Numbered from the stretch's first letter, positions 1,881 through 6,862 are shown. The stretch: DNA of 8,220 bases from a virus (IMGVR_UViG_2778261515_000002:1-8220); one strand, 5' to 3'. The notes: generated by a model from the sequence alone, not told the origin. Numbers and translations are program-made.

Positions 1881-2262
1881 TGCCGCCTCCTCCACCCCGC
1901 AGGCGGGAGAACACACCGGACACCAGTGATGCAATATCCTGCTGGTGGATGAACGACAGAATCTTCACCGACACCACCGATACCAGCACCGCACACAGCG
2001 CATCTGCCGATGTACCGTCATACCCTGTTTTTGATGCAATCCAGGCTGACAGCACGCGCGCCCCCAGCACGCCGATAATGAACGACACAAGAAAATGCGC
2101 CACCACACGCCAGGCTGAAAGCGCCTGCGGCATCGTTGCCACAAATAACGCCCCGGCGAACGCACCAAACACAATCCCGAAATCCGTTCCGGTAAACAGC
2201 CCGAATACCGTCGCCCCGCCGAGCGCCGCAGCCGTGCCGGAACCGGACAAGGGTTCAGACAT
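1870..2262 (-). CDS. Phage holin, class I-like (three predicted TMDs)
   Basis: 130 aa from ATG at 2262-2260 with AGGAG about 9 nt upstream (track ORF extends to an upstream alternative start). Three hydrophobic helices and a charged C-terminal tail (SRLRGGGGGNVK). First gene of the lysis cassette. Confidence 0.55.
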   Translation of the reverse strand: MSEPLSGSGTAAALGGATVFGLFTGTDFGIVFGAFAGALFVATMPQALSAWRVVAHFLVSFIIGVLGARVLSAWIASKTGYDGTSADALCAVLVSVVSVKILSFIHQQDIASLVSGVFSRLRGGGGGNVK

Positions 2263-2276
2263 ACTTTTTTCTCCTG

Positions 2277-2303
2277 TAAATAAAAAAGGGCCACCAGCGG
2301 CCC
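2277..2303 (-). terminator. Intrinsic terminator immediately upstream of the holin gene
   Basis: On the minus strand the hairpin GGGCC-GCTGGT-GGCCC (2288-2303) is followed by TTTTTTATTT, ending about 15 nt before the holin SD. Confidence 0.5.
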
Positions 2304-2430
2304 GTAAAAAAACACCCGTCAAAGGCACCCGCAGATGCCTTTTGTGTGGCGTTACCTGATGTGATGTGCGCTGGAGGTAGCGCGGAGAAAATGAAATAAG
2401 ACTTACCGGAAATTAAGGTCAATCTGAGGA

Positions 2431-2459
2431 TTTAAACCATTTTTAAAGCTTAGTAATAT
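2431..2459 (+). promoter_or_regulatory. Candidate sigma70 promoter for a plus-strand small transcript
   Basis: TTTAAA (2431-2436), 17-nt spacer, TAATAT (2454-2459). Consensus match judged by eye only. Confidence 0.3.
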
Positions 2460-2465
2460 CAACTC

Positions 2466-2614
2466 GTCTCCGGAAGGAGACCGATACTTATTCTTCTTCA
2501 CGGACTTTGTCCCGCGGCGTTAATCCGACAGCCGCGCTTTTTTTGCGCCATATTCATCGCTGACTTACATGGCATTGCCACACGGACATTATCAGTGTCC
2601 GTGTTTTCTTTTTT
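2466..2614 (+). ncRNA. Candidate small RNA, about 150 nt
   Basis: Bounded by the candidate promoter and a strong plus-strand terminator. Begins with a GGAA tetraloop hairpin GTCTCC-GGAA-GGAGAC (2466-2481). No plus-strand ORF with an SD in between; the interval holds an internal hairpin plus T7 (about 2509-2543). Confidence 0.3.
2581..2614 (+). terminator. Intrinsic terminator (plus strand)
   Basis: Perfect 8-bp stem CACGGACA / TGTCCGTG with 7-nt loop (2581-2603), followed by TTTTCTTTTTT (2604-2614). Confidence 0.6.
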
Positions 2615-2626
2615 CGAATTAAGAAT

Positions 2627-2651
2627 AAAAAAAACCGCCAGATACGGCGGT
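2627..2651 (-). terminator. Intrinsic terminator (minus strand), convergent with the plus-strand terminator
   Basis: On the minus strand the hairpin ACCGCC-GTATCT-GGCGGT (2634-2651) is followed by eight U (plus-strand A-run 2627-2634). Likely ends the tRNA/methylase transcript. Confidence 0.6.
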
Positions 2652-3013
2652 TGGTCAATGCAAGGAATGAATTTTTTAATTGTAATAAAATCGAGGCGTC
2701 GGGTGCCTCCCGAAGTATTCCGTCCTGTATGAATACTGTGGTTTCCCGCTAAACCGACTCTTTTAACCACCCTCGCCCTGAGGAGCGCCCCGATAGTGTT
2801 ATTTACAACACCAGAATGATGCATCACCGACCCTGCCAGGAAATACAAAATCTCCACCAGCAATGCACCATTCTGCTGCCGTAAAAAAATCAGCACTGAG
2901 GCTAACCTGGCCTCAAATCATAGCCAGAGAACAGAATGCTTTTTCAAAACAACCTGCTCCCACGTAATAAAAATACGCCAGTGCTGCAATACAATAAGGC
3001 TTATTTCAAATGC

Positions 3014-3088
<75 letters not shown>

Positions 3089-3094
3089 ATATAG

Positions 3095-3167
3095 TGCCGA
3101 TTACCGGAATCGAACTGGCGACCCGGTGATTACAAGTCAGTTGCTTTGTCTGCTAAGTTAAATCGGC
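3095..3167 (-). tRNA. tRNA-like gene, tRNA-Thr(UGU)-like, non-canonical (possible pseudogene)
   Basis: Reverse complement is GCCGATTTAACTTAGCAGACAAAGCAACTGACTTGTAATCACCGGGTCGCCAGTTCGATTCCGGTAATCGGCA. Perfect 7-bp acceptor stem (GCCGATT/AATCGGC), T-loop TTCGATT, and anticodon loop CTTGTAA (anticodon TGT). But the D and anticodon stems have mismatches, there is an A-C mismatch in the T stem, and the 3' tail is CTA rather than CCA. Lies 6 nt from the tRNA-Gly. Confidence 0.4.
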
Positions 3168-3348
3168 AACGGTTCCTCGGAAAAAATAAAACGACCGATA
3201 TATGCATTATTTCCCTGTCATCTCCTCGGAACCGACTATCGATATTAATGAGGGCAAACACTATTTCAATAAACATAGTGTCAATATTAGTAAATATATG
3301 TATAAATTTCTATCACTCGTGATTGATTACAAATAATCACACACATAT

Positions 3349-4395
3349 TTAACTATTTTCTTTTATTTCGCTTACAGTCTGGTTAAATCTCTCTTCTTCC
3401 AGCTCCACACCTATTGCATGCCGTCCCAGCGATAATGCTGCTTTTATTGTTGATCTCGACCCCATAAAAAAATCAGCAACCAAATCTCCCGGATGGCTGC
3501 TGGCGGTAATTATCTGACGCAACATATCCGCCGGTTTCTCACAGGGATGTTTGCCGGGGTAATACTGCACAGGCTTGTGCGTCCAGACATCCGTATACGG
3601 AACGGCAGCCGATACGGAAAAATAACGCCGCAGAGATTTGTACTCATCCAGCAGGCTGGCATATTGCCGGTTCAGTTCACTGTATGTGCTGACCAGCTGG
3701 TGGTGTGGCTTTTCCAGTTCACCGCGCTGATGTTTTTCTGCTGCAACACGCGCAAACAACGCCTGTAATTTCAGATAATCGCCTTCGTTCGGCAACTGCC
3801 ACTGACTGGTACCAAACCAGTGCGAAGCCATGTTTTTCTTTCCGGTGGCTTCCGCTATCTGTTTTGCCGTTATCCCCAGTGATTCACGCGCATCACGAAA
3901 GTAAGAAATCAGCGGGGCCATGACGTGCTGTTTTAGTTCACGCCCCTTTGCCGCATAGCCGTCATTTTTGGGCAGGTATGGCCCCTGATAATGTTCTGCA
4001 AACAGAATGCGTTCTGTTGCCGGGAAATACGCCCGCAGGCTTTCCTTGTTGCATCCGTTCCAGCGCCCGGACGGCTTCGCCCAGATAATGTGGTTCAGCA
4101 CATTAAAGCGTTCACGCATCATGATTTCGATATCAGATGCCAGGCGATGACCACAGAACAGGTAGAGACTTCCGGCAGGCTTCAGTACCCGCCAGAACTG
4201 CGCCAGACATCGGTCCAGCCATTTCAGGTAATCATCGTCGCCCTTCCACTGGTTATCCCAGCCCTCGGGCTTCACTTTAAAGTATGGCGGGTCTGTGACT
4301 ATCAGATCGACAGAATTTTCCGGTAAGGTCTGGATAAATTCCAGGCAATCAGCGTTGATTAACTCACAACTGGATATTTTTACAGTATTAGTCAT
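3349..4395 (-). CDS. DNA methyltransferase, beta-class (N6-adenine/N4-cytosine family, DPPY motif), no restriction partner in window
   Basis: 348 aa from ATG at 4395-4393. Motif IV (LIVTDPPYF) lies near the N-terminus and the SAM-binding motif I-like segment (DFFMGSRSTIKAA) near the C-terminus; this circular permutation defines beta-class amino-methyltransferases. DPPY rather than SPPY favours N6-adenine. No restriction endonuclease gene is adjacent. Confidence 0.85.
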   Translation of the reverse strand: MTNTVKISSCELINADCLEFIQTLPENSVDLIVTDPPYFKVKPEGWDNQWKGDDDYLKWLDRCLAQFWRVLKPAGSLYLFCGHRLASDIEIMMRERFNVLNHIIWAKPSGRWNGCNKESLRAYFPATERILFAEHYQGPYLPKNDGYAAKGRELKQHVMAPLISYFRDARESLGITAKQIAEATGKKNMASHWFGTSQWQLPNEGDYLKLQALFARVAAEKHQRGELEKPHHQLVSTYSELNRQYASLLDEYKSLRRYFSVSAAVPYTDVWTHKPVQYYPGKHPCEKPADMLRQIITASSHPGDLVADFFMGSRSTIKAALSLGRHAIGVELEEERFNQTVSEIKENS

Positions 4396-5191: not shown

Positions 5192-6289
5192 ATGAAAAAA
5201 TTAACAGTGGCAATCTCTGCTGTAGCTGCGTCAGTATTAATGGCGATGTCTGCTCAAGCAGCAGAGATTTATAACAAAGACAGCAACAAACTGGATCTGT
5301 ACGGAAAAGTTAATGCCAAGCACTACTTCTCCTCTAACGATAAACACGATGGTGACAAAACTTATGCTCGTCTGGGCTTCAAAGGCGAAACCCAAATCAA
5401 TGATCAACTGACTGGTTTCGGTCAGTGGGAATATGAATTCAAAGGCAACCGTGCTGAATCTCAAGGTTCTTCCGGGGATAAAACTCGCCTTGCATTCGCT
5501 GGCCTGAAATTCGGTGACTACGGCTCCATCGATTATGGCCGTAACTACGGTGTAGCATACGACATCGGTGCGTGGACTGACGTTTTGCCAGAATTCGGTG
5601 GTGATACCTGGACTCAAACCGACGTATTCATGACTCAGCGTGCAACTGGTGTTGCAACTTACCGTAATAACGACTTCTTCGGTCTGGTTGATGGTCTGAA
5701 CTTTGCTGCTCAGTACCAAGGCAAAAACGATCGTAGCAAGCTCGATAACTATACCGAAGGTAACGGTGATGGCTTCGGTTTCTCTGCTACCTATGAATAC
5801 GAAGGATTCGGTATTGGTGCAACTTATGCGAAATCTGACCGTACCGACACTCAAGTTAATCTAGGGAAAGTTCTTCCTGGAGTATTTGCTTCCGGTAAAA
5901 ATGCAGAAGTTTGGGCCGCTGGTCTGAAATATGACGCTAACAACATTTACTTGGCCACTACCTATTCTGAAACCCAGAATATGACGGTATTTGCTGATCG
6001 CTTCGTCGCTAATAAAGCTCAGAACGTTGAGGCTGTTGCACAATATCAGTTCGATTTTGGGCTGCGTCCGTCCGTGGCTTACCTGCAATCTAAAGGTAAA
6101 GATCTCGGAGTATGGGGCGATCAAGACTTAGTTAAATATGTTGATGTAGGCGCAACCTATTACTTCAACAAAAATATGTCTACTTTCGTTGATTACAAAA
6201 TCAACCTGCTTGACAAAAATGATTTCACCAGAGGTCTTGGTATAAACACCGACGATATTGTTGCTGTCGGTATGGTTTACCAGTTCTAA
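5192..6289 (+). CDS. nmpC: Outer-membrane porin, OmpC/OmpF/PhoE family (prophage NmpC/Lc type)
   Basis: 365 aa from ATG 5192 with AAGGA SD 7 nt upstream; TAA at 6287-6289. Signal peptide [23 protein letters not shown] followed by [16 protein letters not shown], and a C-terminal ...VAVGMVYQF beta-barrel signature. Opposite strand to all phage genes, immediately downstream of Q as in DLP12 and PA-2. Codon usage looks host-optimised. Confidence 0.9.
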
Positions 6290-6310
6290 ATCTTTTTATT
6301 AAAAAAGATA

Positions 6311-6340
6311 TGTTGTGGGAGATATTTATCTCCCACAACA
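6311..6340 (-). terminator. 30-bp perfect palindrome, candidate tR'-type terminator downstream of Q
   Basis: TGTTGTGGGAGATA-TT-TATCTCCCACAACA is a perfect inverted repeat. On the minus strand it is followed by TATCTTTTTTAAT; on the plus strand it is not followed by a U-tract. Lies about 140 nt downstream of the Q stop codon. Confidence 0.45.
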
Positions 6341-6427
6341 TGTGGGTGACGCCCTCACGTCACTGCATTAAGAAAGACATTTTGTCTTTTCTTTTTAACC
6401 TTCTGTTATTTATTACTCTAAACTCTT

Positions 6428-6456
6428 GGGGGCGTTTTTGCGTCCCCTTTTTTATT
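6428..6456 (+). terminator. Intrinsic terminator of the porin gene (plus strand)
   Basis: Stem GGGGGCG / CGTCCCC with loop TTTTTG, followed by TTTTTTATT. Confidence 0.55.
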
Positions 6457-6478
6457 CAATTTTACCAGCAAACGTTAA

Positions 6479-6862
6479 TCAATAACATCTAACAACTTCA
6501 AGATCCATCTCGAGACGAACATCCAGTGCCATCAACATTCCGTCGACTATTCCTTCAGCCTTCTGAAGTTTTTTTCCTATATATCCATCAGAACAATGAT
6601 GCTTACGGGCCAGTGCCATAAACGTCATACCAGCCACATAATAATCTACCAGCAAATCATGCAAATCACTGTTGTTCTTTTTCAAACGAGCCATACACCC
6701 ACAAATAACCATTGCGTCATCATCACTACATTGCGGTCGCGATTTAACCTTTGAAGGAATAAGTCCCTTGAATCCGGCTGCAATCGATGACCAGGTGACA
6801 TCCTCATGATTATTTGCCACCCATGCCCCCCAACGCTCAAGAACCATCTGAATATCACGCAT
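6479..6862 (-). CDS. Late-gene antiterminator Q (small Q family, quuD/phage-82-like)
   Basis: 127 aa from ATG at 6862-6860 with AGGAGGTG SD upstream. Begins [14 protein letters not shown] and contains the Cys-rich segment [18 protein letters not shown]. Located before the porin as in DLP12 (quuD-nmpC). Confidence 0.8.

Follow-up and report, generated by a model that had tools for sequence, protein, structure and literature searches.

The 8,220-nucleotide (nt) viral DNA segment IMGVR_UViG_2778261515_000002:1-8220, referred to as the window in the following, shares 100% identity with a chromosomal lambdoid prophage of enterotoxigenic Escherichia coli (ETEC) from pigs (e.g., strain ETEC1732; NZ_CP122823). 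Its minus strand carries the genes for the antiterminator Q, a DNA methyltransferase, two tRNAs, two holins, and an M15 endolysin (Table 1). The tRNA genes and the first holin gene are separated by a gap of 750 nt, and it is in this gap that the subject of this study, a candidate small RNA (sRNA) gene on the plus strand, is located (around 1,241,774-1,241,979 on the minus strand of NZ_CP122823). The gap corresponds to the position at which toxin genes reside as "morons" in Shiga toxin (Stx) and heat-labile enterotoxin type II (LT-II) phages; a related record is that of phage SerU-LTIIb. An initial annotation of the window, made from the DNA sequence alone, had proposed a plus-strand regulatory sRNA at 2431-2614 and had assigned all phage genes to the other strand. 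The latter statement has to be corrected since the porin gene is encoded on the plus strand.

Architecture of the plus-strand unit

The promoter recognized by the initial annotation, the hexamers TTTAAA and TAATAT separated by 17 nt, is present as described, and so is the hairpin GTCTCC-GGAA-GGAGAC downstream of it. Transcription is predicted to start at G2466, which is positioned 7 nt past the -10 hexamer and is the invariant G that opens the 5' hairpin. The predicted RNA of about 78 nt would consist of this 16-nt hairpin, a single-stranded stretch of 20 nt, the small hairpin GGAC-UUU-GUCC, and a terminator (T1). T1 had already been noted as an internal hairpin followed by seven T residues; this structure does exist (2513-2544), but it is not merely internal and represents the conserved terminator of an autonomous unit. 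Likewise, the strong terminator reported farther downstream is present (2580-2614); we refine its description to that of a diverged tandem copy (T2) of the 3' module to which T1 belongs. Both T1 with its U7 tract and T2 with UUUCUUUUUU consist of a G+C-rich stem-loop followed by a U-tract, the hallmarks of an intrinsic terminator, and a T-run follows T1 in every variant that we inspected. The loop of T1 (2520-2529; UUAAUCCGAC) is unpaired, yet it is conserved from the prophage copies to a copy in the genome of E. coli K-12 (UUAAUCUGAC).

Hfq-binding modules combine a U-rich stretch, a single or double hairpin, and a 3' poly-U tract (Ishikawa et al., 2012). At the level of the sequence, the predicted RNA possesses all of these parts, namely CUUAUUCUUCUUCA, the small hairpin, the terminator, and U7. 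When compared with shuffled sequences, the plus strand folds with z = -3.0 (2466-2544) and z = -4.8 (2466-2616). Since the reverse strand also folds strongly (z = -3.95), the folding energy alone cannot choose between the two strands. A terminator scan of the region 2200-3400 listed 6 terminator-like sites, T2 (2580-2604) among them, as compared to 1.1 ± 1.0 sites in shuffled sequences.

Table 1. Coordinates of the predicted plus-strand unit and of its genetic neighborhood in the window.
Feature	Position	Strand	Remarks
Conserved A/T-rich block	2391-2430	plus	upstream of the -35 hexamer; conserved in 67 distinct prophage variants; alignable with the K-12 yodB-serU copy
Sigma-70-type promoter	2431-2459	plus	-35 TTTAAA 2431-2436; 17-nt spacer 2437-2453; -10 TAATAT 2454-2459
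5'-terminal hairpin GUCUCC-GGAA-GGAGAC	2466-2481	plus	read from the sequence
Single-stranded C/U-rich stretch CGAUACUUAUUCUUCUUCAC	2482-2501	plus	candidate seed; U-rich part of the putative Hfq-binding module
Small hairpin GGAC-UUU-GUCC	2502-2512	plus	immediately 5' of T1
Terminator T1, stem CGCGGC/GCCGCG, 10-12-nt loop	2513-2536	plus	followed by U7 at 2538-2544
Second 3' module, T2	2545-2614	plus	spacer; small hairpin UGGC-AUU-GCCA 2570-2580; stem; U-tract
T2 stem ACACGGACA/TGTCCGTGT	within 2580-2604	plus	followed by TTTCTTTTTT at 2605-2614
STnc100/PasD-like element	2623-2819	minus	late-gene sense; ends at terminator 2652->2633, T-run to 2625
Antiterminator Q	6479-6862	minus	
DNA methyltransferase	3349-4395	minus	
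tRNAs (two)	3095-3167, 3014-3088	minus	
Holins (two)	1870-2262, 1605-1880	minus	
M15 endolysin		minus	
Porin gene, OmpC/NmpC-like	5192-6289	plus	between Q and the methylase gene, opposite the late genes

Conservation, covariation, and distribution of the unit

We compared the unit with its counterparts in a set of about 130 related loci (designated by L numbers). The -35 block (TTTAAACC) hardly varies among the 67 distinct extended variants, nor does the -10 hexamer, TA(A/G)TAT; the spacer is variable in sequence while its length of 17 nt is kept. The conserved A/T-rich block that precedes the promoter may serve as an UP element or as the binding site of a regulator. A promoter-like pair of hexamers with 17-nt spacing and at the right distance is also found in three other versions of the gene described below, i.e., those designated type 2, that of Escherichia albertii, and that of the E. 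coli K-12 core genome.

Compensatory base changes are found in every helix of the predicted RNA. In 32 distinct sequences of the type present in the window (type 1), evaluated with a structure that we specified ourselves, 96.5% of the cells fall into standard pairs as compared to 42-54% in slid controls, and none of 500 shuffles reached the covariation score of these sequences. The 5' hairpin is paired in 97.9% of the cells, and its stem is intact in each of its 28 sequence versions. Double changes affect three pairs, one in the 5' hairpin (U-A 16/C-G 14) and two in T1 (C-G 23/U-A 9 and C-G 9/U-A 8), the latter at positions that the pattern used to retrieve the sequences had left free. Within the single-stranded stretch of the type 1 RNAs, CUUAU and UUCUUCA are near-invariant; the other 5' types and the K-12 copy have an altogether different stretch in this place. 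Modules T1 and T2 align in register from the small hairpin through the stem to the U-tract. This alignment reveals compensation at three of the four pairs of the small hairpin (G-C/U-A, A-U/G-C, and C-G/G-C). For the 3' modules as a whole, double changes are found in 7 of 12 pairs, 95.8% of the cells are paired (46% at most in slid controls), and the score was again reached by 0 of 500 shuffles. T2 lies outside the main retrieval pattern; its outer stem was constrained by the regular expression used for extraction, and its small hairpin and part of its inner stem were free to vary.

The variants also disclose which strand is under constraint. A U-G pair occupies the pair 8-22 of the 5' hairpin in 16 of 31 variants, and U-G or G-U is found at another pair in 10 of 24. 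Since such pairs would be A-C or C-A mismatches in an RNA transcribed from the minus strand, and since T-runs are present 3' of the hairpins exclusively on the plus strand, the constrained molecule is the plus-strand RNA.

A covariance model of the family (R1) matched T2 at 2548-2612 with 15 bits (E = 0.066) and the equivalent site of locus L062 with 18.7 bits (E = 0.007); these matches are the best ones other than the family members themselves, and both are on the correct strand. T2, which some loci do not have, is best explained by a tandem duplication of the 3' module followed by divergence. No conserved promoter was found between T1 and T2, and hence T2 most simply provides a read-through extension (a form of about 147 nt) or a back-up terminator. 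We also considered a separate promoter for the T2 unit; those hexamers of the window that might form one differ among the variants A, A', and B. In those variants in which the U-tract of T1 is interrupted (CUACUUUUC), T2 possesses a perfect U-run, and the main stop may be located there.

Conservation among related prophages, on which the initial annotation had made its proposal depend, is indeed found. Of 5426 complete E. coli genomes, 392 contain the gap interval; a pattern derived from T1 was detected in at least 119 viral contigs of the IMG/VR database and, furthermore, in Escherichia ruysiae and E. albertii. In many genomes, the similarity to the interval 2420-2625 ends at query position 125, directly after the T7 run of T1, and in six types of loci T1 is directly followed by a minus-strand terminator and a tRNA gene, without a second plus-strand terminator. 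This break in homology and the loci without T2 define the autonomous unit as reaching from the promoter to T1. It is found upstream of at least two unrelated lysis cassettes, one with a "putative holin" and M15 or GH108 genes and the other with essD/rrrD, and it behaves as a mobile module. In the O141:H4 strain represented by NZ_CP080223 (L002, 3053-3627), genes for TerB-family and DUF3927 proteins are inserted between the holin gene and the sRNA module; this insertion marks a mosaic junction near position ~2350 of the window.

Further versions of the gene were found outside type 1. Type 2 is present in five IMG/VR contigs of Qin-like prophages (L054, L024, L059, L064, and L076), in which it is antisense to nearby tRNA genes; it has the same 3' module, combined with a different promoter, a different 5' hairpin (CCUCCCGAAAGGGA), and a different single strand. 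In addition, sok (6432-6607) and DicF (10958-11011) are encoded on contig L054. A fourth version, in E. albertii NBRC 107761 (L012, 3543-3641, minus strand), scores 59 bits with the family model, is located about 600 nt from the SraC/RyeA-SdsR locus, and possesses a 5' part without a counterpart in E. coli. In prophage Sp5 of strain Sakai (L133, 6587-6676, minus strand), the family model gave a weak match (14.9 bits, E = 0.071) in antisense orientation between ECs_5706 and ECs_1210, downstream of the nanS-p/IS629 region of this Stx2 prophage; the match could reflect chance or another antisense sRNA-like element.

We also considered coding functions for the interval. No convincing open reading frame (ORF) lies between promoter and terminators, in keeping with the initial annotation; a 19-codon plus-strand ORF with an ATG start in one group of variants was dismissed as it is absent from the window. 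On the minus strand, the annotation pipeline PGAP predicts a "hypothetical protein" (WP_064226585.1; 2498-2896), the reading frame of which crosses three terminators and two RNA elements. This frame is open over at least 100 codons in about 8 of 79 distinct loci, its product has no Pfam or PHROG match, and the call is probably spurious. A similar call of 132 amino acids has been made over PasD1 in strain E2348/69. The sole conserved ORF opposite to the unit encodes 32 amino acids (2501->2403, GTG or ATG start), and one might suppose that this peptide, as a product of the late operon, is the conserved feature and that the RNA features are secondary to it. About 50 of 67 distinct variants retain the ORF at an unchanged length, its start codon switches between GTG and ATG, and synonymous changes make up 44% of the single-site codon differences. 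However, it is frameshifted or truncated in the loci L013 (seven times), L003, L037, L112, L019 (six times), L055, L065, L039, and L022, and these several independent lineages retain the promoter, the hairpin, and the terminator. Furthermore, the third position of its codons is not enriched in variable sites (15/11/15 for the three positions), it has neither a Shine-Dalgarno sequence nor a Pfam or PHROG match, and it is absent from the type 2, E. albertii, and K-12 versions that share the promoter and the 3' module. A protein-coding gene is thus unlikely here, and we regard it as highly improbable that the peptide accounts for the conservation of the interval. Type I toxin-antitoxin systems possess a small hydrophobic ORF beneath an antisense RNA; the peptide in question (MKKNKYRSPSGDELILLSFKNGLNPQIDLNFR) is hydrophilic and hence is not a type I toxin, in agreement with the initial annotation, which had found no such toxin opposite to the unit.

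A core-genome relative in E. coli K-12 and the interpretation of the unit

A 45-nt match connects the prophage unit with the zinT-serU region of strain E2348/69 (L008, 1420-1546). Nearly all E. coli genomes (5418 of 5426), that of K-12 among them, possess a 166-nt segment of this region with at least 95% identity. In strain MG1655, the copy is positioned between yodB and serU at about 2,043,059-2,043,180 on the plus strand of NC_000913.3 (L134, 4060-4181), where no RNA gene has been annotated; R1 matches this copy with 51.9 bits (E = 2e-12). The K-12 and prophage genes follow the same plan of a 5' hairpin, a single strand, a double hairpin, and a U-tract. In their alignment, the upstream block, both hexamers with their 17-nt spacing, the GGAC-UUU-GUCC hairpin, and the terminator are homologous, whereas the 5' hairpin and the single strand are unrelated. 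Unlike the prophage gene, the K-12 gene is a chromosomal, non-prophage locus and has one terminator only.

Term-seq data obtained with E. coli K-12 contain an "orphan" 3' end at position 2,043,181 of the plus strand, which is supported by about 1900-2200 reads and appears in the lists for two of three conditions (Adams et al., 2021; PMC7815308). The sequence flanking this 3' end is that of the yodB-serU terminator, and the end falls within its U-tract. The 3' module of the family therefore yields a real RNA end in vivo, and it does so on the predicted strand. We found no published name for the yodB-serU RNA in a search that reached the supplementary tables of a minority of the transcriptome studies; the ROSE supplement lists no entry near the predicted K-12 start (2,043,091-2,043,095).

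Judged by these alignments, the yodB-serU copy and the prophage copy are members of one undescribed Escherichia sRNA family that keeps its promoter and 3' module and exchanges the 5' hairpin and the seed. It is conceivable, and we put this forward as a tentative idea only, that the prophage gene is the phage copy of a modular family with an ancestral or parallel member in the core genome, and that the phage RNA is a seed-swapped mimic of a host sRNA. If so, the phage would have retained the promoter of the host gene, its upstream control block, and its 3' protein-binding module, and would have exchanged the 5' hairpin and the seed only. The phage RNA would then be induced by the same signal as the host RNA, would compete with it for the same chaperone, and would redirect or counteract its output.

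The K-12 copy also bears on the question whether a functional RNA is made at all. Three to four terminator-like sites are crowded into 2513-2652 on both strands, and the promoter deviates from the consensus; one could therefore view the gap as a two-way terminator block that insulates the tRNA genes from the lysis genes, with the promoter hexamers being incidental. Plus-strand terminators, however, have nothing to stop unless a promoter of the same orientation precedes them, and the closest such promoter is that at 2431-2459. Moreover, the hexamers, their spacing, and the 40-nt upstream block are conserved between prophage and core genome while the transcribed middle is replaced, the 5' hairpin covaries, and the K-12 copy gives rise to a discrete RNA 3' end outside of annotated genes. 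We consider a mere terminator block to be quite improbable.

A plus-strand sRNA gene fits these data best because it accounts for the conserved promoter, the covariation with U-G pairs that can form in the plus-strand RNA only, the restriction of the T-runs to this strand, and the 3' end detected in K-12. With a probability of roughly two in three, we interpret the segment 2431-2544 (plus strand) as an independent sRNA gene which the lambdoid prophage carries as a moron in its late region and whose product acts in trans and is probably of the Hfq-dependent type; the sRNA proposed by the initial annotation is supported. Transcription from the sigma-70-type promoter would begin at about G2466, the short 5' hairpin would shield or stabilize the 5' end of the RNA, and the exposed C/U-rich single strand would serve as the seed. 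The small hairpin and the Rho-independent terminator with its U7 tract would form the 3' end, and CUUAUUCUUCUUCA, the double hairpin, and U7 would together have the form of an Hfq-binding module. In a lysogen, such an RNA would be produced independently of the Q antiterminator and would base-pair in trans with RNAs of the host or the phage, either as a regulator or as a sponge of host sRNAs. Such an action in trans, by pairing or sponging, is most likely by analogy with AsxR/AgvB and PasA/PasC, which are encoded at the same site in other prophages and act in this way.

Several points weigh against this interpretation. The promoter agrees with the consensus at 8 of 12 positions, and because this falls below the threshold of 9 of 12 used in our consensus promoter scan, the scan omitted it. 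Most positions of the T1 stem were fixed by the retrieval pattern and only the free ones are informative; in addition, the related sequences are not independent of each other, and the shuffle controls overstate the significance. Rfam searches of the plus strand at three settings yielded no family and only chance-level matches to microRNAs, riboswitches, and PGK, and PasA, its long form, and PasC gave chance matches only (E ≥ 0.8) when compared with the window by blastn at a word size of 7; given this lack of an Rfam or Pas match, the function is argued from position and architecture only. A search for targets within the window, comprising nine tests, had as its best result the ribosome binding site of the second holin gene (-14.3 kcal/mol; 1st percentile of the background), and a 1% tail among nine tests is not significant. 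Finally, there is the persistence of the 32-codon ORF in about three quarters of the variants.

A different role of the RNA would be one mainly in cis, in which it pairs or collides with the Q-antiterminated late transcript and thereby dampens leaky expression of the lysis genes or sets the timing of lysis; such a role is compatible with an additional action in trans. The unit is antisense to the late operon between the tRNA and holin genes, and its RNA would be perfectly complementary to the part of the late transcript that precedes the holin start by about 200-350 nt. The minus-strand terminators on either side (2652->2625 and 2303->2288) imply that traffic on the late strand is tightly controlled without Q, and PasA, encoded at the same site in enteropathogenic E. 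coli (EPEC), forms RIL-seq chimeras with the overlapping region of an esterase gene. However, the promoter and the 3' module are also present at the yodB-serU and E. albertii loci. Since these members do not face a late operon, an effect in cis cannot be the function of the family as a whole. In addition, unrelated lysis cassettes follow the unit, their distance from it varies with the TerB/DUF3927 insertion, and the late-strand sequence overlapped by the unit is an untranslated leader without a known signal. A primary role in cis therefore appears unlikely to us, and we retain the trans-acting sRNA gene as our preferred interpretation.

Some features in the neighborhood of the unit deserve mention in their own right. 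A terminator-like hairpin on the minus strand (GGGCCGCTGGTGGCCC followed by T6; 2288-2303) is found about 25 nt upstream of the ribosome binding site of the holin gene; without antitermination by Q, transcription arriving from upstream should stop there, short of the lysis genes. The tRNA at 3095-3167 was matched by Rfam with 45.9 bits and has the anticodon loop CTTGTAA (Thr). It possesses mismatches in the anticodon and T stems, was not called by ARAGORN, and is not annotated in the ETEC1732 record, whereas relatives carry a tRNA-Thr annotation at this position; it may be a decaying tRNA. The placement of the porin gene resembles that of nmpC in prophage DLP12, and a counterpart of the DLP12 sRNA IpeX would presumably be expected downstream of it (6290-6478).

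Comparison with known small RNAs of lambdoid prophages

Lambdoid prophages of enterohemorrhagic E. coli (EHEC) carry convergent pairs of sRNA genes at the moron site downstream of the late promoter PR', where an antisense anti-sRNA (AsxR, AgvB, or EcOnc03), the 3' part of which is conserved and the 5' part of which varies, faces the late-sense EcOnc27 (Tree et al., 2014; PMC4104026). Our positive control, prophage Sp5 of strain Sakai, reproduced this arrangement, with Rfam STnc100 (208 bits) facing AsxR (88.1 bits). The layout of the window is the same: Q, the methylase, the tRNAs, the gap, and the holins are on the minus strand, and the plus-strand unit, ending at 2614, converges on a minus-strand unit that ends at about 2625. 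On the latter (2623-2819), Rfam STnc100 (RF02076) scores 22.6 bits (E = 0.011), which does not reach the gathering score of 47; true members in L062 and Sp5 score between 129 and 208 bits. Its terminator (2652->2625) is strong, conserved, and listed by the terminator scan. The element resembles STnc100/EcOnc27/PasD in its late-sense orientation, its length of about 200 nt, its GGGAGGCACCCG hairpin (found also in EcOnc27 of Sp5 and in PasD1), and its terminator facing an antisense sRNA, but the terminator itself and much of the 5' half differ, and BLAST searches of the window with PasD1 and PasD2 revealed no similarity. PasD has been related to STnc100, and the adjacency to the holin gene has been noted (Zhu, Shabalina, and Storz, 2026, preprint). 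As far as the alignments can tell, the minus-strand element probably is a diverged sRNA of the STnc100/PasD type. No promoter for it was clearly seen in the window, and it may be processed from the tRNA transcript.

The likeness of the plus-strand unit to AsxR, AgvB, and EcOnc03 (RF02703 and RF02702) is one of position and design. It occupies the moron site after Q and PR', has an antisense orientation relative to the late transcript, and is convergent with a late-sense RNA of the STnc100 type; it has its own promoter and Rho-independent terminator, and, as in those RNAs, its 3' part is conserved and its 5' part is variable. However, AsxR and AgvB are 51-60 nt long, with a variable 5' part of 14-18 nt and a conserved 3' part of about 42 nt, as compared to about 78 nt and a 5' hairpin in the RNA predicted here. 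By eye only, the T2 unit (CAUGGCAUUGCC and terminator) is similar to AsxR (CAUGCAAUUGCC and terminator). We rejected a homology of T1 or T2 to AsxR/AgvB: CAUGNNAUUGCC and the terminator are similar by eye, but MAFFT aligned the sequences out of register and R1 misses AsxR. RF02703 and RF02702 gave no match on the plus strand at the gathering threshold, nor at E ≤ 10 in either 2250-3010 or 2440-2625.

PasA and PasC of EPEC are encoded antisense to late genes just upstream of the holin gene; PasA has a major form of 85 nt and a minor one of 236 nt, and PasD is late-sense (Pearl Mizrahi et al., 2021; PMC8550237, Table S6). The unit described here is like PasA and PasC of E2348/69 (EcOnc51 and EcOnc52 in EHEC) in being antisense directly upstream of a holin-lysozyme cassette, in its size of about 80 nt, and in its two tandem related terminators, which go along with short and long RNA forms in the case of PasA and are a matter of anatomy only in the prophage studied here. 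The neighborhoods differ, with tRNAs and the weakly STnc100-like element in the window and a sialate esterase gene in EPEC; in addition, Hfq dependence and targets have been established for PasA and PasC. The predicted plus-strand RNA is thus placed by its sequence comparisons outside the AsxR/AgvB and PasA/C/D families, and we view the finding as a new sequence family of a known type, the prophage moron sRNA.

About 7% of the complete E. coli genomes carry the family, as do more than 100 viral contigs; the carriers include ETEC, extraintestinal and avian pathogenic (ExPEC/APEC), and enteroaggregative (EAEC) backgrounds, in which a systematic search for such RNAs has yet to be made, and type 1 copies are found, for instance, in E. 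coli 042 and APEC O1. Since an unannotated small transcript of the K-12 core genome shares the promoter and the 3' module, the family is tractable in a standard laboratory strain, and the pair of prophage and core genes provides a clean natural case of seed swapping between sRNA genes of host and phage. The sRNAs encoded as morons in the late regions of other prophages (AsxR, AgvB, and the Pas RNAs) rewire host regulation in EHEC and EPEC, and the locus described here would add to them a family that is unrelated in sequence.

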